NCBI GenBank assembly: GCA_964594245.1
Contig: CAZQML010000220.1
Location: forward strand, 1-37,935
Direction of reading: 5' to 3'
Source: an uncultured Dehalococcoidales bacterium
GTDB lineage: Bacteria > Chloroflexota > Dehalococcoidia > GIF9 > AB-539-J10
DNA: 37,935 nucleotides
Shown piece by piece: positions 655 to 34,724 of this stretch. How positions within the stretch are numbered: position 1 is the first letter of the stretch; the number at the start of each line of letters is the position of its first letter. The position numbers and the translations under genes were made by a program. Below the pieces are notes generated by a model that worked only from the letters and a program-made list of their open reading frames with translations, was not told where the DNA came from and ran no database searches.

Positions 655-683
655 TTGACACGTACGGGCCAATCGTCTATTAT
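655..683 (+). promoter_or_regulatory. Candidate sigma70 promoter for rpmJ-rpsM-rpsK-rpsD-rpoA-rplQ
   Basis: TTGACA (655-660), 17-nt spacer, TATTAT (678-683), read by eye in the infA-rpmJ gap. Confidence 0.45.
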
Positions 684-5265: not shown

Positions 5266-5298
5266 GGGGTGGCAGCTACGGTTGCCACCCCTTTTCTT
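5266..5298 (+). terminator. Rho-independent terminator of the ribosomal-protein operon
   Basis: 9-bp GC-rich stem GGGGTGGCA (5266-5274) / TGCCACCCC (5283-5291), 8-nt loop, then TTTTCTT (5292-5298). Confidence 0.7.
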
Positions 5299-6289: not shown

Positions 6290-6363
6290 TGGGCCATTGT
6301 GGACTCGAACCACAGACCCCGGTCTTATCAGGACCGTGCTCTAGCCGACTGAGCTAATGGCCC
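6290..6363 (-). tRNA. tRNA-Ile (anticodon GAU)
   Basis: The reverse complement GGGCCATTAGCTCAGTCGGCTAGAGCACGGTCCTGATAAGACCGGGGTCTGTGGTTCGAGTCCACAATGGCCCA folds as a cloverleaf: 7-bp acceptor stem, GCTC/GAGC D stem, CGGTC/GACCG anticodon stem with loop CTGATAA, and a TGTGG-TTCGAGT-CCACA T arm. CCA is not encoded. Confidence 0.9.
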
Positions 6364-6754: not shown

Positions 6755-8326
6755 CTAGAGCGGTATGTTCCCGTGCTTCTTGTCAGGATATGGCTCGCGC
6801 TTCGTCTCAAGGAGATCGAATGCCCGGGCCAGCTTGAATCTTGTATCCTTCGGATCAATCACGTCATCGACCGACCCTCGTTCGGCGGCACGGTAGGGAT
6901 TCGAGAACTGTTCCTTGTACTCCTGGATTCTCTGTGCCCTGAGTGCGTCGGGGTCGTCGGCGCTCTTGATTTCTCGAGCGAAGACTATCTCGGCGGCGCC
7001 GCTCGCCCCCATGACGGCAATCTCAGCCGAAGGATATGCCAGGACCATATCCGCACCCAGGTACTTTGAGCACATGCCGACATAGGCTCCGCCGTACGCC
7101 TTTCTGAGTATCAAGGTGACCTTTGGAACAGTCGCCTCGGAGTACACATACAGCAGCTTCGCGCCGTGGCGGATGATTCCTCCGTGCTCCTGGGCAGTCC
7201 CGGGCATGTAGCCCGGCACGTCGACCAGCGTCAGCAGGGGGATGTTGAAGCAATCGCAGAACCTGATGAACCGCGAGGCCTTGTCGGATGCATTGATGTC
7301 GAGGACTCCGGCCATGAACTTCGCCTGGTTCGCGATGATGCCGATGCTGCGTCCGCCGATGCGAGCGAATCCCACCACCATGTTTGGGGCGTACAGACGG
7401 TGCACCTCGAAGAAATGTCCGTCGTCCACGATTTTGGCGATGACATCCTTGACGTCGTAGGGCTTGTTCGCGTCGGCAGGAATCACATCACGCAACGAGA
7501 CGTCCTCCCTGTCCACGGGGTCCTCTGTGAGGACTGGAAGAGCCTCCTCCCTGTAGTTCTGAGGCATGTATGAGAGCAGTTCCTGTGCGGTGGCAATCGC
7601 CGCCTCATCGTCGCCGGCCAGAAAATGGGCAACGCCACTCCTCTGGTTGTGTACAAGACCGCCACCGAGTTGTTCGTGGGTCACTTCTTCCGAGAGGACG
7701 TCCTTCACGACCGCCGGGCCTGTGATGTACATCGTGCTCGACTTGCGCGTCATGATGATGAAGTCGGTGATGGCAGGCGAGTACACGGCGCCCCCGGCGG
7801 TGGGGCCAAGGACAATCGATATCTGTGGGATGACTCCCGACGAGCGAGAGTTGCGGAAGAATATCCGGCCGTAGCCGTCCAGCGAGTCGATGCCTTCTTG
7901 GATACGGGCGCCACCTGAGTCAAGCATGGCGATGCAAGGAATGCCCGCCTGGAGCGCAAGGTCCTGCATCCTCGCTATCTTGAGGGCGTGTATCTCACCC
8001 AGCGAACCGCCAAGCACTGTGAAGTCCTGAGAGTACACGGCAACCTTGCGTCCGGCGATGCGCCCCACTCCGGTGACGACTCCGTCTGCAGGCAGCTCCA
8101 TCTTGTCCAGGCCGTAGTAGACGGAGCGCGTCTTCATGAACTCGTCGTACTCGACGAACGAGCCCTTGTCCAGAAGCACGTCTATCCGTTCACGAGCTGT
8201 CAGTTTGCCTTTGGCATGCTGCGCCTCAATCCTCTGCTCGCCGCCGAGCTTACGAACCGCCGCGCGCTTCGCCTCGAGTTCGAGTTGTCTCTTCTGTCCC
8301 TCGTTGATCTCTTCCATCTCATTCAC
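6755..8326 (-). CDS. mmdA: Acyl-CoA carboxyltransferase subunit (methylmalonyl-CoA decarboxylase alpha / PccB family)
   Basis: 523 aa, the length and sequence style of the carboxyl_trans family (..GKLTARERIDVLLDKGSF.E.., ..AMLDSGGARIQEG.., ..GGAYVGM..). Its neighbours are the Na+-pump beta subunit and the biotin carrier. Confidence 0.85.
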   Translation of the reverse strand: MNEMEEINEGQKRQLELEAKRAAVRKLGGEQRIEAQHAKGKLTARERIDVLLDKGSFVEYDEFMKTRSVYYGLDKMELPADGVVTGVGRIAGRKVAVYSQDFTVLGGSLGEIHALKIARMQDLALQAGIPCIAMLDSGGARIQEGIDSLDGYGRIFFRNSRSSGVIPQISIVLGPTAGGAVYSPAITDFIIMTRKSSTMYITGPAVVKDVLSEEVTHEQLGGGLVHNQRSGVAHFLAGDDEAAIATAQELLSYMPQNYREEALPVLTEDPVDREDVSLRDVIPADANKPYDVKDVIAKIVDDGHFFEVHRLYAPNMVVGFARIGGRSIGIIANQAKFMAGVLDINASDKASRFIRFCDCFNIPLLTLVDVPGYMPGTAQEHGGIIRHGAKLLYVYSEATVPKVTLILRKAYGGAYVGMCSKYLGADMVLAYPSAEIAVMGASGAAEIVFAREIKSADDPDALRAQRIQEYKEQFSNPYRAAERGSVDDVIDPKDTRFKLARAFDLLETKREPYPDKKHGNIPL

Positions 8327-8382
8327 CTCTAGGTTCGTCGCATGTCAGCAGGCGCTGCGCGTAATTGGCTCGTTTGCATCTG

Positions 8383-9726
8383 CTATCCAAGAATGCCGAG
8401 GAATACGCCTCCGGCTATGGCGGCCCCGATTGCCCCTGCCACATTGGGGCCCATCGCGTGCATCAGCAGGAAGTTCCTGGGGTTCTCCTTCTGGCCCATG
8501 ACCTGTACGACCCGCGCGGACATTGGCACTGCGGACACACCCGCCGCGCCAATCATCGGATTTATCTTCTCTTTGGAGAACGCGTTCATGAGTTTCGCCA
8601 GTAGTATGCCGGCCGCGGCTGCGCTCGAAAACGCCACGACGCCGAGCACCAGAATGAGGAGCGTGCGTGGCTGCAGGAAGTTCTCTGCCGGCATGCTGGC
8701 GCCAATCGCAAGGGTAAGGAAGATAGTGAGCATGTCCACGAGTGTTGTCTGTGCCGTGTTGCTCAGGCGTTCGACGACCCCGGACTCGCGGAAGAGGTTG
8801 CCCACCATGAAGCAGCCGATTAGTGGAGCCGAAGAGGGGACGAAGAGGATAACCACCACTGTTGTGATGATGGGGAAGAGGGTCTTCTCGATTCTGCTCA
8901 CGGGTCGCATCTGCGGCTTCATGTAGATACGGCGCTCCTCCCTGGTCGTGAGCAGGCGTATCACGGGCGGCAGTATTACGGGTACCAGTGCCATGTACGA
9001 GTAGCAGGCAACGGCCGTCGCACCTATGATGTGAGGCGCGAGCACAGAGGTCACGTATATCGTGGTTGGGCCCTCCGCGCCACCTATGATACCTATCGAG
9101 CACGCCTCTGGAATGCTGAAACCCGCCAGGAGAGCGAGGAAGAACGCGAAATAGACGCCGAACTGAGCGGCTGCTCCCAGTAGGAGAGTCTTCGGATTCG
9201 CGAGCATCGGCCCGAAGTCCGTGAGGGCACCCAGGCACAAGAACATGAGTGGTGGCAGTATCTGCCACATCACCCCGTACTTGAAGATCCTGGATAGCAG
9301 GCCGATGGGAGTAGTGGGATACTCCTCCTGGTCCGTCTGTTCCTGGGTGAGGAGCCGGGCCACGACGTCGCCCTCTTTCACTTGGTCGCCGGCGGCGACC
9401 ATATACGTGTCCACGCGGCCGAACACAGGGCTCACGATTTCACCTGAGTCCAGAGTGATGAGAACGGCCTCCCTGCCGAATCGTGAGCCCTCCACGGTCT
9501 CAATGCTGACAACGGTGCCCGTTGTGGGCGCCTTGAGCTGCATTTCGTAGTCCATCATGCCGCCAAGGGGGAGGTTGACCAGCAGCATGCCGAATCCGAT
9601 GGGGACGAGCAGCAGGGGCTCCATCTTCTTCGCAATCGCCAGGTAGATGAGGAGCCCTGCTATCAGCAGCATCACGGCGTTGCCCCAGTAGAAGTGCTGA
9701 AACCCGCTTTCTAGTAATCCGAACAA
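8383..9726 (-). CDS. mmdB: Na+-translocating decarboxylase beta subunit (OadB/MmdB/GcdB family) with an inserted loop domain
   Basis: 447 aa. Conserved blocks are LAIAKKMEPLLLVPIGFG, GALTDFGPMLANPKTLLLGAAAQFG, IGIIGGAEGPT, NLFRESGVVERL, NPMIGAAGVSAVPMSARV and LLMHAMGPNVAG. Confidence 0.9.
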   Translation of the reverse strand: MFGLLESGFQHFYWGNAVMLLIAGLLIYLAIAKKMEPLLLVPIGFGMLLVNLPLGGMMDYEMQLKAPTTGTVVSIETVEGSRFGREAVLITLDSGEIVSPVFGRVDTYMVAAGDQVKEGDVVARLLTQEQTDQEEYPTTPIGLLSRIFKYGVMWQILPPLMFLCLGALTDFGPMLANPKTLLLGAAAQFGVYFAFFLALLAGFSIPEACSIGIIGGAEGPTTIYVTSVLAPHIIGATAVACYSYMALVPVILPPVIRLLTTREERRIYMKPQMRPVSRIEKTLFPIITTVVVILFVPSSAPLIGCFMVGNLFRESGVVERLSNTAQTTLVDMLTIFLTLAIGASMPAENFLQPRTLLILVLGVVAFSSAAAAGILLAKLMNAFSKEKINPMIGAAGVSAVPMSARVVQVMGQKENPRNFLLMHAMGPNVAGAIGAAIAGGVFLGILG

Positions 9727-22087: not shown

Positions 22088-25699
<3,612 letters not shown>

Positions 25700-27398: not shown

Positions 27399-28136
27399 GT
27401 GGTGGATACCCTCTTAACGTTCAACAACCTTCTCTGGCCTGCCTTTGTGCTGGCTGACCTCGGCCTCGCAGTGCTCTTGTTCAGGTTCTTTGGCAAAGAT
27501 GGGTTGTACGTCCTCGTTGCCGTGTCTGTGATTGTGGCCAACATACAGGTCACCAAAACGATCGTGCTCTTCGGTCTCACCGCAACGCTCGGCAATGCCC
27601 TGTACGGGTGCACGTTCTTCGCCACCGATGTCCTCAGCGAGGTGTACGGCAAACGAGAGGCTCGACGGAGTGTCTGGCTCGGCTTCGTTGCCATGGCACT
27701 GGTTGTTGTCTGGATGCAGTTCGGCCTTAGATTCGTGCCGGGACCCGAGGACCTGGCGCATGGCTCATTGACAACGGTCTTTGGACTGATGCCACGTGTG
27801 GCGGCCGGAAGCCTCGTTGCGTATCTAGTGTCGCAGCACCACGATATCCTGGCTTTCCATTTCTGGAAGACCAGGACACGGGGTCGTCACCTCTGGCTGC
27901 GCAATTGTGCCTCTACGATGGTGTCTCAAGCCATCGACTCCGTGCTGTTCTGCTTCATCGCGCTGTGGGGTCTCTATGACACAGGCACGTGGTTGGAGAT
28001 ACTCGCAACAACGTACATACTGAAGTGGGTGGTTGCATTGCTGGATACCCCGTTCATCTACCTGGCGGTCCGGCTCAACCCGCCCGGGCGGGCCGAGCCG
28101 TCCGGCGATGGCCCGCTTCTGAGGGAGGTAGCATGA
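27399..28136 (+). CDS. yhhQ: Queuosine-precursor transporter (YhhQ/DUF165, VUT family)
   Basis: 245 aa and polytopic. Blocks typical of DUF165: ..TFFATDVLSEVYGKREARR.., ..SLVAYLVSQHHDILAFHFWK.., ..LWLRNCASTMVSQAIDSVLF... Adjacent to tgt. Confidence 0.8.
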   Translation: MVDTLLTFNNLLWPAFVLADLGLAVLLFRFFGKDGLYVLVAVSVIVANIQVTKTIVLFGLTATLGNALYGCTFFATDVLSEVYGKREARRSVWLGFVAMALVVVWMQFGLRFVPGPEDLAHGSLTTVFGLMPRVAAGSLVAYLVSQHHDILAFHFWKTRTRGRHLWLRNCASTMVSQAIDSVLFCFIALWGLYDTGTWLEILATTYILKWVVALLDTPFIYLAVRLNPPGRAEPSGDGPLLREVA

Positions 28137-29701
28137 GAATCTGCACTGTTCAGGAGATGAGAGAGCTTGATAGGCGTGCGGTTGAGGAGTTTGGCCTTTC
28201 CGAGGATATCCTCATGGAGAACGCCGGACAGGCCGTGTACGAGGTTGCGAAGGCGGAATTCGGCACAGACGGAAGGCGCTTCGTTGTGCTGTGTGGCGGG
28301 GGCAACAACGGCGGCGACGGACTCGTCGTTGCACGGAAGCTGCACTCGGTGGCTGCCGAAGTCAAGGTCTATCTGCTGTCCGATGAGGACGCGCTTCATG
28401 GGGCGGCACGCAGGAATCTGGATGCCGCGATGCGCGCGGGCATTCCTCTGCAGCGACTTCGCATGGTTGAGGACCTCTACCTGGGCAGGCCGCACGATGT
28501 CCTCATTGATGCCATCTTTGGCACGGGACTCTCGCGAAGCCCGGAGGGCCTGAACAGAGAAGTGATTGAACGTGTCAATGAGTTCAATCAGCCGGTTCTG
28601 AGCGTGGATATTCCGTCCGGAGTAAATGGAGACACGGGTGCGGTGGTGGACATCGCAGTTCGGGCAACCTGCACGGTTAGCTTCGGATTGCCCAAGAGAG
28701 GCAACATGTTGCCACCGGGACGGGGGCTGTCCGGGAAGCTGTACGTGTCGCACATCTCGTTCCCGCCGTCACTCTACCGCGCCGAGAGCCAGGTTGTCAC
28801 GAATCGTCTCAGCGTCTTGTCTCCCAGGCTGGCTGAGTGTCACAAGGGTGACTTCGGCGATGTCCTGTTTGTGGCTGGTTCACGCGCCTACCTGGGTGCT
28901 CCGCTCTTCGCCTCGATGTCATTCCTGAAAGCTGGCGGGGGCTACGCACGACTCGCTACGCCTGCGTCAATCGCCCCCTTGCTGGCGGTCCGGGCGAGCG
29001 AGGTGGTCATGGTTCCCCTTCAAGAAACGGCCGACGGAAGTATCGCTCTCTCGAACCTCGATGGGCTGTGTGCCCTCGCAGACAGCGTCGACATGGTCGT
29101 TGTCGGCCCGGGCCTGTCGCTCAACGGGGAGACACAGGAGCTTGTCAGAGGGCTTGTCTCCCAAGTCACGAAGCCCATACTTGTTGATGGTGATGGTCTC
29201 ACTGCCATAGCATCTGATGGAGAGATGGTTCGGCGGCGCGAAGCCCCGATGGTGCTCACTCCCCACGCCGGTGAGATGTCGCGACTGCTCGGTGTTTCCG
29301 TAGCGGAGGTGGCTCACGACAGAATCGCGGCGGTGCAGGAAGCCTCCGGCAGACTCAACTCGGTGGTCCTGCTGAAGGGCTCGAGCTCTCTTGTCGCTGA
29401 GCCGGGTGGCCCTGTGTCTCTCAATCTCAGTGGCAATCCGGGCATGGCAACTGCCGGGAGCGGGGATGTCCTCGCCGGGACGATTGCCGCTCTCTATGGT
29501 CTGGGACTTGGCCTCCGGGAGGCGGCAGAGGTCGGTGCATTCGTACATGGATTGGCGGGTGACCTCGCGGCCGAGGAGAAGGGGCAGGATGGCATTGTCG
29601 CTGGTGACATCATGGAGTTCCTGCCCCGTGCGATGCGATACTACCGGGAGAGATTTCGTGATCTCGAACGAAACCTATACGGGGGGCCGGTCGTTGTATA
29701 G
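28133..29701 (+). CDS. nnr: Bifunctional NAD(P)H-hydrate repair enzyme (epimerase + ADP-dependent dehydratase)
   Basis: ATG 28133 follows GAGGGAGG and overlaps the yhhQ stop (ATGA). The YjeF-N motif is VLCGGGNNGGDG and the C-terminal carbohydrate-kinase motif is GSGDVLAG. 522 aa. Confidence 0.9.
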   Translation: MRICTVQEMRELDRRAVEEFGLSEDILMENAGQAVYEVAKAEFGTDGRRFVVLCGGGNNGGDGLVVARKLHSVAAEVKVYLLSDEDALHGAARRNLDAAMRAGIPLQRLRMVEDLYLGRPHDVLIDAIFGTGLSRSPEGLNREVIERVNEFNQPVLSVDIPSGVNGDTGAVVDIAVRATCTVSFGLPKRGNMLPPGRGLSGKLYVSHISFPPSLYRAESQVVTNRLSVLSPRLAECHKGDFGDVLFVAGSRAYLGAPLFASMSFLKAGGGYARLATPASIAPLLAVRASEVVMVPLQETADGSIALSNLDGLCALADSVDMVVVGPGLSLNGETQELVRGLVSQVTKPILVDGDGLTAIASDGEMVRRREAPMVLTPHAGEMSRLLGVSVAEVAHDRIAAVQEASGRLNSVVLLKGSSSLVAEPGGPVSLNLSGNPGMATAGSGDVLAGTIAALYGLGLGLREAAEVGAFVHGLAGDLAAEEKGQDGIVAGDIMEFLPRAMRYYRERFRDLERNLYGGPVVV

Positions 29702-30003: not shown

Positions 30004-30032
30004 TTGACATTCGTGAAGGAGGGAACTAGAAT
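30004..30032 (+). promoter_or_regulatory. Near-consensus sigma70 promoter of the tubulin-like gene
   Basis: TTGACA (30004-30009), exact 17-nt spacer, TAGAAT (30027-30032). The ATG at 30039 lies 6 nt after the -10 element. Confidence 0.55.
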
Positions 30033-30038
30033 AGCGCC

Positions 30039-31211
30039 ATGAAGCTGCTGGTAATAGGACTTGGACAATGTGGCGGGCGGATCGCCGATAGATTCGCTCG
30101 CTTGAACAAGAGAGGGCATGCCCTCCGCGGGATGGACACTCTCGCCGGAGTGTTCGCAGTCAACACGGATGTGACGGACCTCAGCGGACTGCGTACGATC
30201 AAACCTGACTACAAGCATCGCATACTCATCGGTGCGCAACGTACGAACGGCCATGGCGTGGGGAAGATCAGCGAACTGGGTGCCGAGATAGCGAACGAAG
30301 ACGTCGACAAGATAGTCGATGCGATTCGCACGGCCGAAGGATTCTACGAGACTGACGCCTTCCTGCTGTGCGCCGGAGCTGCGGGCGGTACAGGATCTGG
30401 CGCCATAGGGGTGCTGACCAAGCACCTGAAGGAACGGTATATCGGGAAGCCTGTCTATGACGTGGTGGTCCTGCCGTTCCGCCAGGAGGAGACCACTGAG
30501 ACCAGAACCATCTATAACACGGCAACGTGCTTGAAGTCGACGTACCTGGTCGCTGATGCCGTGTTCCTGATTGACAATCAGCGCTATGTGAAGAAAGACG
30601 CCCCCGCCGAGAACAACCTGAACACTATCAATGCCAGAGTGGCGGAGCCGTTCTACAACATGCTGTGCGCGGGCGAGGAGACCAAGAGCCGCTTCGTTGG
30701 CTCCAAGACACTCGATGCTGGAGACATCATCCAGACTCTAACCGGGTGGACAGTTATCGGAGGTGGTATGTCGAGGCTCGAGCGACGACTGCCGTTCTGC
30801 GGCCCGAGGCGTGACTTTCGTGACAAGATGATTGAAACCAGCCGGGCCTCGCACGCGATGGATCAAGCCATAAGCGAGCTGTCAATGACGATTGACCCGA
30901 GCGATGCGGGAAGGGCTCTGTATCTCCTTACGGCCCCTGCCAAAGAGATGAGCATGGACATTCTCAAGCAGCTCGGAGACAACCTCAAGAGCCTTGCGCC
31001 CAACGCCCTCATCCGGAGTGGTGACTACCCGCGGGATAGTCGGCAGGTTGACGTGACTCTTGTCATGTCGGAGATTGGCAGCGTTCGAAAGGTAACGGAC
31101 TACTTCACCAAGGCGATCGACCTCATCTCGGTGATGAAGGCGAAACGCGGGCTCGGCTATCAGACGAGAAAGCTCGAGGAGTCCTTCGATGAGATTCCCG
31201 TGCTGCTATGA
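30039..31211 (+). CDS. Tubulin/FtsZ-superfamily GTPase, CetZ/tubulin-like (not canonical FtsZ)
   Basis: 390 aa beginning MKLLVIGLGQCGGRIA (T1 loop). Other motifs are AVNTDVTDL, GHGVGKISELGAE, the tubulin signature AGGTGSG (aa 115-121), VFLIDNQ and the T7-like LDAGDIIQTL. The C-terminal tail is ..SFDEIPVLL. Confidence 0.8.
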   Translation: MKLLVIGLGQCGGRIADRFARLNKRGHALRGMDTLAGVFAVNTDVTDLSGLRTIKPDYKHRILIGAQRTNGHGVGKISELGAEIANEDVDKIVDAIRTAEGFYETDAFLLCAGAAGGTGSGAIGVLTKHLKERYIGKPVYDVVVLPFRQEETTETRTIYNTATCLKSTYLVADAVFLIDNQRYVKKDAPAENNLNTINARVAEPFYNMLCAGEETKSRFVGSKTLDAGDIIQTLTGWTVIGGGMSRLERRLPFCGPRRDFRDKMIETSRASHAMDQAISELSMTIDPSDAGRALYLLTAPAKEMSMDILKQLGDNLKSLAPNALIRSGDYPRDSRQVDVTLVMSEIGSVRKVTDYFTKAIDLISVMKAKRGLGYQTRKLEESFDEIPVLL

Positions 31212-31307: not shown

Positions 31308-31886
31308 CTACCTGCGGGCCTTGGTGAACACTGTCCATGTGCGCGCCATAGCCTCTCCGTGTACCTGGCGAGCCTTCTTCTCGGCTTCGTCTCTCTCTCT
31401 CAGCGATTGTGAGACGACGTCGTCATACGCCTTCTTGGCTTGGGCAACGTTGTCGTCATATGCTTTGCGAATCTGCGCAGTGCTCGCCTCGAACGCATGC
31501 TGAGCCTGAGCCAGGTCGTCTTCCATCACCTTCTTTGCCTGTGCGAGGGAAGTCTCGTACTGCCCTCGTGCCCGGCCTGTGGCGTCCATAGAGCCCCGCC
31601 GGGCCTTGTCGAGGGCGTCTGAGTACGCCTTCTCGGCTTTCTGCTCCTGGTCTTTGTAGGCGTTCTCCAGCTGGTGCTCCGCCTGGACGTACGCCATATA
31701 GGCCGCTACGGCACGTTGTTGGGTTTCGTCCAGGGCATCAACCATCGCCGAATCTTCCGCCGCTGGAGGCTTCTTCACGTCTTCAGCCTGCGCCTTGGTT
31801 TCTGCCGCTGTTGGAGGCCTCTTCTCGGTGTCAGTCTGCGCCCTGCTTTCCGGCGCTTTCTCGCGCACTTCCTCTACGTTGGCCAT
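31308..31886 (-). CDS. Hendecad-repeat (11-residue period) Ala/Lys/Asp/Gln-rich helical protein, 192 aa
   Basis: ATG 31886 is preceded by AAGGAGGG. About 12 consecutive 11-mers have a conserved aromatic/hydrophobic residue at positions 66, 77, 88, 110, 121, 132, 143, 154, 176 and 187 (for example KKAYDDNVAQA and KKAYDDVVSQS). Confidence 0.7.
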   Translation of the reverse strand: MANVEEVREKAPESRAQTDTEKRPPTAAETKAQAEDVKKPPAAEDSAMVDALDETQQRAVAAYMAYVQAEHQLENAYKDQEQKAEKAYSDALDKARRGSMDATGRARGQYETSLAQAKKVMEDDLAQAQHAFEASTAQIRKAYDDNVAQAKKAYDDVVSQSLRERDEAEKKARQVHGEAMARTWTVFTKARR

Positions 31887-31985: not shown

Positions 31986-33557
31986 CTATCGTTCGCCTTC
32001 CTCGCTGTCATCGGACCTTTCGAACGGCTTGTCCTTCTCTGATGCGTACATTCTGGAGAGGAACTCCAGCCTCGCTCGCATGTCTCGCTTTGCTTCGTGC
32101 GGCGGCGGCTTCAGTCTCGACTCGTCCGGCTCGATTCGGCTGAGGGCCTCCTCGAAGAGCTTTGAGGAGGGGAGTTCGGATGGCTCTTCGACCCCCTGGC
32201 TGGCCTTCTCCGCACCCGCGACGGCTTCTTCAAAGACGCGAGCGGATGCGTGAGCGGCCTTACGTGCGGTCCTGGTGGTCTCCTCAGCCTTCTTGATGGC
32301 CTCCTCGAGAACCTTTGCCGATGCAACTACGGTGTCGCGCGCCGCGGTGATTGATGCCTCGGTGGCTTCTCTCACCACGCGTCTCGACTCCGCTGCTGCC
32401 CGCATAGCTTCGGTGCCGATTTCCTCGGAGCGACGCACTGCCTCCGCTGCCAGCCCCCGCGCTTCCTCCTCCGCCTCGGCGGCGAGCTTCCCGATCTCTT
32501 CAGCTCGGGCTGCCGATGCCTCGGATGCCTTCAGGGCGTCTTCCGCCAGCCTCATGGCTGTCGACGTAACCTCTTCGCTGCGTCTAACGGCCTCGCGAGA
32601 CGAACGCTCCGCTTGCTCGGCCTTCCCCATGGCCTCCTGCGAAGCACGAGTCGCGGACTCGACTGCTTCCCTGCTTGCCCTTACCGTTTCTTCAATGCGG
32701 GCGACCGCCTCGTGAGACGACTTGATTTGCTGGCTGGCCTCACGCTGGCTTAGCTTCCCTGCCTCCTCCGCTCGCCGCAGGGCAGTTTCAAACGCACGGC
32801 TGGACTGCGCGGACGACGCATTCGAGGCAGCAATTGCCTCTTCTGCCCGAGCAAGCGCCTCTTCAAATGCCCCGGAAGACAGAGCGGCTGAATCGGAGGC
32901 CGACTGGAAGACTCTCTCCGCCCTGGCGACAGCCTTCGCGGAGGCCTTCTCAGCGTCTCGTGAGGCCTTCTCGGACGAGCGGGCGAGTCGCTCAAGTGTA
33001 ATCTGGGCCTCACGAGAGGCTTTGATGGCCTCCTCTGAAGCCCGTGTAGCCTTCTGGCCCTCTTCTTCAGCGCGCGCCACCGCTTGCTGGGCCGCGCGCC
33101 GGGCTTCCTCCGCCTTCTCCTGCGCAACCTGCGAAGCCTTCTCGACCCTGCTCAGCAGCTTCTGGGAGGAAGAGACTGACTCCACCACGGAATCCATCGT
33201 CTGATTCGCAATCACCTCAAGCTGCGCAACCGCCTCTTCAAATGAGCGAGCGCTCTCCTCGGCTGCCTCAGTGGACGACCGAACGGCCTGCTCGGCTGCA
33301 GCGATGGTGTCTTGCGCCCTCGAGATGGTCCCATCCACCGACTGGCTGACCTCGGACGCCTTCCTCACAGCGTCCTCGGCCATCTTTCGGGCCTCTTCCG
33401 CCGTGGCAAGCGCCTCGCGGCCGATGTTCTCGATTCTGGTGACGGCCTGTTCTGAGGCTTTGCGAGAATGCTCTCCAGCCTGGCGTGCAGCCAGGTTCAT
33501 CTGCTCGGCTCTTGCTACCGCCTCTTCGAAGGAAGGTGACTCTCTGTCTCTGTCCAT
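31986..33557 (-). CDS. Large Ala/Glu/Ser/Arg-rich repeat protein (about 25-residue period, predicted coiled coil), 523 aa
   Basis: A continuous 523-codon ORF with GGAAGG Shine-Dalgarno and its own promoter. The motif [FLS]-E-E-A-[VLIM]-x-[RK]-A-E-E recurs (FEEAVARAE, FEEALARAEE, FETALRRAEE, LEEAIKKAEE, FEEAVAGAE, FEEALSRIE). Confidence 0.75.
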   Translation of the reverse strand: MDRDRESPSFEEAVARAEQMNLAARQAGEHSRKASEQAVTRIENIGREALATAEEARKMAEDAVRKASEVSQSVDGTISRAQDTIAAAEQAVRSSTEAAEESARSFEEAVAQLEVIANQTMDSVVESVSSSQKLLSRVEKASQVAQEKAEEARRAAQQAVARAEEEGQKATRASEEAIKASREAQITLERLARSSEKASRDAEKASAKAVARAERVFQSASDSAALSSGAFEEALARAEEAIAASNASSAQSSRAFETALRRAEEAGKLSQREASQQIKSSHEAVARIEETVRASREAVESATRASQEAMGKAEQAERSSREAVRRSEEVTSTAMRLAEDALKASEASAARAEEIGKLAAEAEEEARGLAAEAVRRSEEIGTEAMRAAAESRRVVREATEASITAARDTVVASAKVLEEAIKKAEETTRTARKAAHASARVFEEAVAGAEKASQGVEEPSELPSSKLFEEALSRIEPDESRLKPPPHEAKRDMRARLEFLSRMYASEKDKPFERSDDSEEGER

Positions 33558-33621: not shown

Positions 33622-33650
33622 ATTGTAGTCACACCACTTGTTATTATCAA
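33622..33650 (-). promoter_or_regulatory. Sigma70 promoter of the repeat-protein operon
   Basis: On the minus strand: TTGATA (33650-33645), 17-nt spacer, TACAAT (33627-33622). The ~58-nt leader contains an 8-bp hairpin (33581-33609). Confidence 0.5.
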
Positions 33651-34668: not shown

Positions 34669-34703
34669 AGAAGAAGAGCAGGCGCGGACACTGCCCGCGC
34701 CTG
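34669..34703 (-). terminator. Rho-independent terminator after dctM
   Basis: 9-bp stem CAGGCGCGG / CCGCGCCTG (34679-34703) with a 7-nt loop, followed on the minus strand by CUCUUCUUCU. Confidence 0.6.
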
Positions 34704-34724
34704 CCGCACTTGAATACGATACGA

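Follow-up and report, generated by a model that had tools for sequence, protein, structure and literature searches.

What is a tubulin homologue unlike FtsZ doing on a bacterial chromosome, and with which partners? The question is raised by a contig of an uncultured Dehalococcoidales bacterium (CAZQML010000220.1 of assembly GCA_964594245.1), of which all 37,935 nucleotides, hereafter the window, were analysed. It carries a gene whose product is CetZ-like by domain and fold, because it combines PF00091 with CetZ_C and its closest structures are those of CetZ proteins. As the gene stands beside two conserved genes for helical-repeat proteins, its product is probably part of an unstudied cytoskeleton (Table 1).

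Table 1 Coordinates of the CetZ-like gene, its signals and domains, and its two helical-repeat neighbours in the window.
Feature	Position	Strand	Remarks
Near-consensus sigma-70-type promoter	30004..30032	+	TTGACA-17-TAGAAT; 11/12 consensus match
CetZ-like tubulin-superfamily GTPase gene	30039..31211	+	ATG start, 390 aa
Tubulin/FtsZ GTPase domain	30045..30587 (aa 3-183)	+	PF00091, E 1.1e-32
T1 motif GLGQCGG	30057-30077	+	
CetZ-type C-terminal domain	30615..31118 (aa 193-360)	+	PF21011
T4 motif AGGTGSG	30381-30401	+	
T7	30708-30725 (aa 224-229)	+	within the CetZ-type C-terminal domain
Extreme C-terminal peptide F-D-E-I-P-V-L-L	31185..31208 (aa 383-390)	+	putative short linear docking motif
Small helical-repeat protein gene	31308..31886	-	192 aa; convergent with the CetZ-like gene
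Large helical-repeat protein gene	31986..33557	-	523 aa; next after the small gene
Promoter-like TTGATA-17-TACAAT	33622..33650	-	10/12 match, 64 nt upstream of the large gene

Domains and GTPase motifs

The 390-residue protein matches the Tubulin family of Pfam with 114.3 bits, against a curated cutoff of 33, and CetZ_C with 46.5 bits against 21.6 (E 3.7e-12), the latter match covering positions 7-179 of a profile of 180. Its score with TIGR00065, the ftsZ equivalog, is 64.1 bits for a cutoff of 295.2. In the Pfam scan FtsZ_C (PF12327) is absent even at E values up to 1, and Tubulin_C (PF03953) gives no match.

A full set of GTPase motifs had been claimed in an earlier, sequence-only reading of this DNA, and all seven motifs are found exactly at its residues: GLGQCGG (7-13), AVNTDVTDL (40-48), GHGVG (71-75), GAE (81-83), AGGTGSG (115-121), VFLIDNQ (175-181) and LDAGDIIQTL (225-234). 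As a sequence pattern, this set is far above chance. Conservation was assessed in an alignment of 115 homologues, 61-97% identical. The residues of T1, T4, T5 and T6 are invariant in it, among them G7, G9, Q10, C11 and G12 of T1 and G116-G121 of T4; P146, F147, D179, N180 and G228 are invariant as well, and the T7 residues D226 and D229 are conserved in at least 90% of the homologues.

In the alignment returned by a search of PDB sequences, D226 and D229 stand opposite D215 and E218 of CetZ1. Mutation of E218 abolishes CetZ1 function, according to a recent preprint (bioRxiv 10.1101/2024.04.08.588506). The T7 acidic residues are, by alignment, those predicted to complete the active site of the next subunit. 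Because both the GTPase motifs and this acidic pair are conserved, all parts for polymerisation-coupled GTP hydrolysis are present, and the protein would be an active GTPase kept under selection.

Relationship to CetZ, FtsZ and tubulin

The best match among PDB sequences is Haloferax volcanii CetZ1 (4b46, E 1e-39), aligned from end to end, followed by CetZ2 (4b45, E 3e-24) and by the CetZ of M. thermophila (3zid, E 4.5e-15). The best FtsZ of the same search comes at 2e-12, gamma-tubulin at 7e-9 and the tubulins at about 1e-8 or weaker. Pairwise identity amounts to 32% with CetZ1, 28% with CetZ2 and 30% with the 3zid protein; it is 23% with a canonical FtsZ (Tubulin and FtsZ_C; TIGR00065 412 bits) from a related Dehalococcoidales locus, L063, where it is encoded on the same contig as two CetZ-like genes.

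We built an AlphaFold2 model on the 115-homologue alignment (predicted TM-score, pTM, 0.79; mean predicted local distance difference test, pLDDT, 76) and compared it with the PDB by Foldseek. The three CetZ entries occupy ranks 1-3, with target-normalised TM-scores of 0.81, 0.80 and 0.74; FtsZ entries reach 0.72-0.77, a modest margin of CetZ over FtsZ, and TubZ and tubulin 0.59-0.62. The sequence-only reading had proposed a CetZ-like GTPase with the tubulin/FtsZ fold, distinct from FtsZ and not grouping with its canonical form. Pfam and the fold search agree with this, CetZ being best by sequence and by fold, as do the low TIGR00065 score and the true FtsZ that coexists with CetZ-like proteins at L063.

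In a neighbour-joining tree with 100 bootstraps, rooted on Dehalococcoidales FtsZ and holding no labelled Thermococcales, FtsZ1/2 or tubulin set, all Dehalococcoidia sequences and their nearest unnamed relatives form one clade. This clade excludes H. volcanii CetZ1/2 in 95 bootstraps and the 3zid protein in 93. On this tree, the Dehalococcoidia CetZ-like proteins are a distinct bacterial clade beside haloarchaeal CetZ1/2. Brown & Duggin 2023 (PMC9856176) draw the boundary of the CetZ family at the Thermococcales CetZ group.

Host and distribution

When one genome per GTDB species was scanned, 107 stretches were found to encode a relative; the 79 loci that were kept all come from Dehalococcoidia, Dehalococcoidales or Chloroflexota metagenome-assembled genomes (MAGs). 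Loci are designated here by L numbers. The gene order tgt, Vut_1 transporter, nnr, CetZ-like gene, two helical-repeat genes, nitrilase and dctMQP is kept in 15 of these assemblies (L001-L007, L009-L014 and L031, plus the truncated L008). Besides a bacterial S4, the window encodes RpoA with its C-terminal domain, RecA, DnaE-type Pol III alpha and NAD-dependent LigA, so that the bacterial neighbours named in the sequence-only reading are real, and its GC content is even, at 0.57-0.63. An archaeal-bacterial chimera, which that reading had left as a way to be wrong, is excluded because of the synteny in 15 MAGs and the even GC. As read from these sequences, the host is bacterial and the CetZ-like gene vertically inherited.

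Reviews that describe CetZ as archaea-specific would make an artefact or a passenger conceivable, be it a mis-binned or mis-assembled archaeal gene or a recent transfer without function. However, the flanking bacterial genes are shared by 15 independent assemblies of even GC, every one of the 79 loci belongs to Dehalococcoidia or Chloroflexota, the catalytic residues are invariant down to 61% identity, and the clade stands apart from haloarchaeal CetZ1/2 in 95/100 bootstraps. We give this explanation almost no credence.

The best 120 database matches all have about 390 aa and both domains, and come from Dehalococcoidia or Chloroflexota MAGs wherever the organism is named. The database search as a whole returned thousands of homologues, labelled 'cell division protein FtsZ' or 'tubulin/FtsZ family protein' by NCBI and sometimes 'tubulin-like protein CetZ' by JGI; in a library clustered at 50% identity, 246 clusters match at E <= 1e-10, of which 65 also do so at E <= 1e-30. 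Queries with paralogues from Dehalococcoidales and Dehalogenimonas MAGs found no named species among their best 120 matches, which, wherever the organism is given, are again Dehalococcoidia or Chloroflexota genomes, mostly MAGs. The family is common in Dehalococcoidia, often with 2-3 copies per genome: the expectation that such a gene would be rare in bacteria holds outside Dehalococcoidia but fails within the class.

Tandem or triple CetZ-like copies occur at L053:8926-11395, L058:10001-12551, L067:8751-11176 and L047 (three copies); the upstream copy of L067, with 292 bits, is by far the more divergent one and falls with cluster P0133. At L076:410-1573, in an 'uncultured Dehalogenimonas sp.' MAG, an in-frame stop replaces codon 58, a Tyr in relatives, and is either a sequencing error or a mark of a pseudogene.

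The Dehalococcoidia CetZ-like clade has been noticed already, in one sentence of Santana-Molina et al. 2023 (PMC9871819), whose group is evidently the same as the window family. The family may still be called functionally uncharacterised, as it had been: the available part of that account is silent on function, on partner genes, on the tail motif and on the promoter, and does not analyse copy numbers.

Two helical-repeat genes beside the CetZ-like gene

The CetZ-like gene had been taken for a stand-alone gene, and in this respect the sequence-only reading was mistaken, as the two helical-repeat genes downstream are conserved partners. By tblastn, a homologue of the small gene adjoins the CetZ-like gene in 49 of the 79 loci and one of the large gene in 54. 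Unsupervised clustering of the neighbours in 78 loci recovers the large family in 56 and the small one in 47, followed by GAPDH (27), dnaX (25) and recR (19). Below about 77% identity, just these two open reading frames (ORFs) among the window genes stay beside the CetZ-like gene; altogether, 70 of 101 CetZ-like genes have a small or a large helical-repeat gene no more than 600 bp away. A clade of 57-60% identity has a fixed block of four genes, CetZ-like A(+), small(-), large(-) and CetZ-like B(+).

This block is seen in Dehalococcoidaceae-type MAGs (L034:4786-10234, L037, L038, L040-L044, L048-L051, L054, L055 and L063:6849-12646). Its CetZ-like paralogues are about 58-60% identical to the window protein, each with a TTGACA/TAAAAT promoter and a GAGGTG Shine-Dalgarno sequence.

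The small protein has an acidic N-terminal region and repeats of 11-residue period that vary in number; each of its ends carries a conserved block, the C-terminal one reading W-x-[IV]-[FY]-x-K. Rich in Ala, Glu, Ser and Arg, the large protein contains about 20 copies of a 25-residue repeat, a period found in four orthologues; full-length orthologues measure 495-818 aa. Its N-terminus (F-E-[EK]-A-V-A-R-A-E) is conserved, and so is its C-terminus ([IM]-x-x-R-L-[DE]-[FS]-L-x-x-M-Y, then an acidic tail). Neither protein has a transmembrane segment, and profile searches of Pfam, NCBIfam and PDB assign neither to a family, yielding just a designed helical bundle and one sub-threshold match. The promoter-like site upstream of the large gene is likely the start of a two-gene partner operon, judging by its sequence.

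More distant relatives have other surroundings. P0304, a sister-clade protein of 418 aa with the tail L-L-P-D-L, is encoded at L080:6001-8305 and L081:6001-8305 in the midst of resolvases, a group II intron reverse transcriptase and genes of the IS605 OrfB/TnpB type. After it comes a protein of 327 aa that has an N-terminal transmembrane helix and belongs to no known family; the locus may be a different, mobile-element-linked module. In a 53%-identity clade (P0121/P0272, a cluster of 269 members), the gene is convergent with one that resembles a terminase large subunit (L082:842-3623 and L083:2264-4996), and the locus may be a prophage border.

Bacterial outliers of the tubulin superfamily are often plasmid or phage partition proteins. 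Together with the mobile-element genes around P0304 and the terminase-like gene beside P0272, this would fit a segregation or positioning motor of the TubZ/PhuZ kind, acting on DNA or other cargo from an integrated mobile element. The window gene, however, lies among housekeeping genes in an order kept in 15 MAGs; no TubR-like DNA-binding partner is found nearby, the conserved partners being helical-repeat proteins, and in the fold search TubZ ranks much lower than CetZ and FtsZ. No match to the CetZ-like protein exists in 50,697 phage records, and those in 72,556 plasmids are only haloarchaeal megaplasmid CetZ paralogues, at 30-33% identity; by these searches, a mobile-element origin of the window copy was ruled out. 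The window holds no TubR/TubZ partner, BtubA/B pair or dcw genes, as the sequence-only reading had it: the CetZ-like gene is single there, and in two-copy loci both copies are CetZ-like and flank the helical-repeat genes. Such a motor seems to us very improbable.

The C-terminal peptide

The sequence F/L-x-x-I-P-x-L-L (rarely L-I) ends 120 homologues at or within 1-2 residues of the terminus, one truncated protein excepted, and I386, P387 and L389 are invariant in the 115-homologue alignment. CetZ-like paralogues without helical-repeat neighbours have the tail [IVL]-P-x-[LIV]-[LF], and more distant representatives have tails such as D-I-D-S-L-L or I-E-P-L-F; the type [DE]-[ILV]-x-x-L-[LF] is general to CetZ-like proteins, those of haloarchaeal type included. 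The tail of CetZ1 itself, LESLF, is required for rod formation, as the preprint reports (bioRxiv 10.1101/2024.04.08.588506). At L063, both CetZ-like proteins end in K-D-I-P-S-L-L and the FtsZ tail is D-E-L-D-M-P-S-F-L-R-R. The F-x-D-I-P-x-L-L tail thus resembles the FtsZ C-terminal peptide (D-I-P-x-F-L type), by its letters and as a resemblance only. Because related tails occur in distant CetZ-like proteins, in FtsZ and in CetZ1, it is a putative ancestral docking motif, for which FtsA, SepF, the helical-repeat proteins and the adjoining subunit are candidate ligands.

The same tail underlies the main rival to a role in cell shape, namely an accessory division protein: a second, divergent component of the Z-ring that assembles together with canonical FtsZ or after it and docks on the same membrane anchor, FtsA or SepF, through its FtsZ-like end. 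A parallel exists in archaea, where FtsZ2 complements FtsZ1. The likeness of D-I-P-S-L-L to D-M-P-S-F-L-R-R at L063 speaks for it, as does the position of ftsZ in that locus, 5.5 kb upstream of the CetZ-like cluster; wall-less cells, moreover, may need added constriction machinery. In Dehalococcoides mccartyi BTF08, tubulin-like and FtsZ-annotated proteins drop together in cells with a persistent ring-shaped septum (PMC8163811). However, ftsZ is near the CetZ-like gene in only one of the 79 loci, no dcw or ftsA genes lie within the 38-kb window, and CetZ1 and CetZ2, which among characterised proteins are its nearest relatives, serve shape and motility, not division. Since a similar tail is general to CetZ-like proteins, it is not specific evidence for FtsA binding either. 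An accessory division role is in our view unlikely, if the most serious competitor.

Promoter and expression signals

The strong promoter announced by the sequence-only reading is real as a sequence feature, being one of two 11/12 consensus matches in the window. The other, TTGACA-17-TATTAT at 655-683 (+), lies 26 nt upstream of rpmJ (L36; 709-822), at the head of the rpsM-rpsK-rpsD-rpoA row. As its promoter matches the consensus as well as that of rpmJ, the CetZ-like gene is probably highly expressed.

The -10 hexamer occupies positions -12 to -7 (the A of ATG being +1). Because it ends 6 nt before the ATG, we infer a leaderless mRNA that starts at or next to A30039. In 12 loci, the 36 nt 5' of the ATG hardly vary, although the rest of the spacer cannot be aligned. 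L015-L030 have TTGACA-17-TA[CG/A]AAT followed by 6-7 nt to the ATG and no Shine-Dalgarno sequence; in more distant clades a similar promoter precedes a leader of about 25 nt with a GAGGTG Shine-Dalgarno sequence. In the clade of the window, these signals point to a strongly transcribed leaderless mRNA. An AAGGAGG in the promoter spacer, 13 nt from the ATG, was rejected as the main Shine-Dalgarno sequence, the sister subclade L015-L030 keeping the geometry without it. Rfam, run on the whole window, finds no RNA element in the 337-nt spacer upstream of the gene.

Proposed function

We propose that the CetZ-like protein forms a GTP-driven cytoskeletal filament that works with the helical-repeat partners, probably in the organisation of cell shape or envelope, and put the probability of this reading at roughly 0.6. 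The protein would be made in large amounts from its leaderless mRNA and would polymerise head to tail in a dynamic, GTP-dependent manner. The F-x-D-I-P-x-L-L tail, the polymer surface or both would then join the 11-mer and 25-mer helical-repeat proteins into a cytoskeletal module. This module would organise cell shape or envelope, not division itself, in parallel to CetZ1 in Haloferax: in H. volcanii, the change from disc to rod is under the control of CetZ1, which depends for this on its T7 loop and on its C-terminal tail (bioRxiv 10.1101/2024.04.08.588506).

Published data on related bacteria bear on this proposal. According to a Chloroflexota survey of more than 5000 genomes (PMC10608941), mraZ-mraW-ftsA-ftsZ is kept by D. 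mccartyi and by the Dehalococcoidales and SAR202 genomes studied there (two of high quality per order), whereas the genes for peptidoglycan are gone from them. In D. mccartyi 195, ftsZ (DET0343) lies beside ftsA (DET0342), and DET0589 and DET0636 are annotated as FtsZ as well (PMC5102406). In strain BTF08, an 'FtsZ/Tubulin GTPase' (btf_0551), a hypothetical protein encoded nearby (btf_0548) and an 'FtsZ' (btf_0595) are abundant in disc-shaped cells of the pure culture, and lowered or not quantified in barrel-shaped cells of co-cultures (PMC8163811). Two papers on the CBDB1 proteome make no mention of FtsZ or tubulin.

Several points weigh against the proposed shape or envelope filament. For about 25 CetZ-like paralogues, complete 10-kb flanks contain no helical-repeat gene close by, and clades of <=53% identity have other neighbours (the terminase-like gene, rlmN, or a membrane protein among insertion sequence elements); because of these distant clades, the partnership may be clade-specific or act in trans. 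The AlphaFold2 model, with its mean pLDDT of 76, has weak loops at residues 40-80 and 245-290, and neighbour-joining is the sole method behind the phylogeny. For this family, polymerisation, binding between the partners and the leaderless start are predictions, and both peptidoglycan loss and ftsZ are known from relatives and the literature, not from the window's own genome. As btf_0551/btf_0595 and DET0589/DET0636 are candidate members of the window family, they are a lead only; since the FtsZ-annotated btf_0595 fell too, the BTF08 correlation cannot separate shape from division.

A wider version of the proposal is tentative at best, and we would sooner doubt it than rely on it: a complete, undescribed bacterial cytoskeleton of CetZ-type filaments (1-3 paralogues) and two dedicated helical-repeat proteins, possibly of archaeal origin, that assumed the organisation of cell shape and envelope after loss of peptidoglycan and elongasome. 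If true, it would be to these bacteria what the CetZ system is to haloarchaea, and would account for the disc form of Dehalococcoides-like cells.

Significance

Reviews present CetZ as the archaea-specific third branch of the tubulin superfamily, and it is so called in recent papers too. The Dehalococcoidia family speaks against this: a bacterial class has a CetZ-like family that is large and strongly conserved and whose expression is probably high, so that CetZ-type proteins would not be confined to archaea. By the literature, Dehalococcoidia have lost the cell wall and keep FtsZ and FtsA, which raises the question of what shapes wall-less bacteria bounded by an S-layer. With its three or four genes, the conserved module offers definite targets to biochemistry, and to cryo-tomography in Dehalococcoides or Dehalogenimonas, which are cultured and important for bioremediation. 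It also bears on the evolution of tubulin-family C-terminal docking peptides and their partners across the bacteria-archaea divide. The partner module, the tail motif, the paralogue architecture and the leaderless consensus promoter are apparently new here, none being mentioned in the CetZ and Dehalococcoides literature as far as its available text extends.

Other features of the window

Two long GC-rich hairpins with T-rich tails lie at 34677-34705 (-), with a 13-bp stem just downstream of the dctM stop, and at 5266-5291 (+), with an 11-bp stem after the row that contains rpoA and a pseudouridine synthase gene; both are likely intrinsic terminators. The longest ORFs of nnr (27989-29701, +) and ligA (22588-24930, -) both have N-terminal extensions that reach past the Pfam domains: about 150 nt of the nnr ORF are shared with the Vut_1 gene, and in LigA the adenylation domain begins near aa 119-182. 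The true starts of both genes are probably further downstream, e.g. ATG 28133 for nnr. At 6755-9726 (-), a carboxyltransferase gene adjoins one for OAD_beta, the beta subunit of a Na+-transporting decarboxylase, which suggests a membrane decarboxylase sodium pump. The sole Rfam match in the window is a tRNA at 6290-6363 (-), with 65 bits.

Comparison with known systems

For the partner genes, an analogy and nothing closer is offered by the coiled-coil-rich cytoskeletal proteins of bacteria (crescentin, FilP/Scy, Ccrp) and by the 11-mer amphipathic repeat proteins. Like the proteins encoded here, these are long, Ala/Glu-rich, helical and non-heptad (periods of 11 and 25 = 7+7+11 in our case), without an enzymatic domain; they have no detectable sequence relationship to the partner proteins. 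Genes of these families are not known to be linked to a tubulin homologue.

Bacterial FtsZ shares with the window protein the superfamily, the overall fold and the logic of a flexible C-terminus with a D-[IM]-P-x-[FL]-L-type peptide. In contrast to FtsZ, the window protein fails TIGR00065, lacks FtsZ_C, is encoded outside an ftsA/dcw context and belongs to a family that coexists with a true FtsZ. TubZ/PhuZ and BtubA/B are likewise tubulin-superfamily GTPases outside the division cluster, but the window gene has no plasmid or phage location, no TubR partner and no Tubulin_C, and the fold similarity is lower.

The closest system is archaeal CetZ (CetZ1 4B46, CetZ2 4B45 and 3ZID). The window family differs from it by a bacterial host, an identity of 28-32%, a clade of its own, the proline in its tail (D-I-P-x-L-L), as in bacterial FtsZ, and the linkage to two helical-repeat genes. 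Other gene associations are listed in a review of cetZ neighbourhoods, and the CetZ literature mentions no helical-repeat linkage in its available text; the contexts of CetZ-like groups are called unrelated in the 2023 survey (PMC9871819). The likenesses, on the other side, are extensive. Both have the two-domain architecture of Tubulin and CetZ_C and the T4 motif GGTGSG; GQCG of T1 matches the M. thermophila protein, and the T7 acidic pair and short hydrophobic C-terminal tail of CetZ1 are both paralleled in the window protein. Several paralogues per genome are found in archaea as in Dehalococcoidia. Finally, according to the literature (PMC10608941, PMC8163811), the hosts of archaeal CetZ and Dehalococcoides have a common architecture of the cell itself: disc-shaped, without peptidoglycan and bounded by an S-layer.

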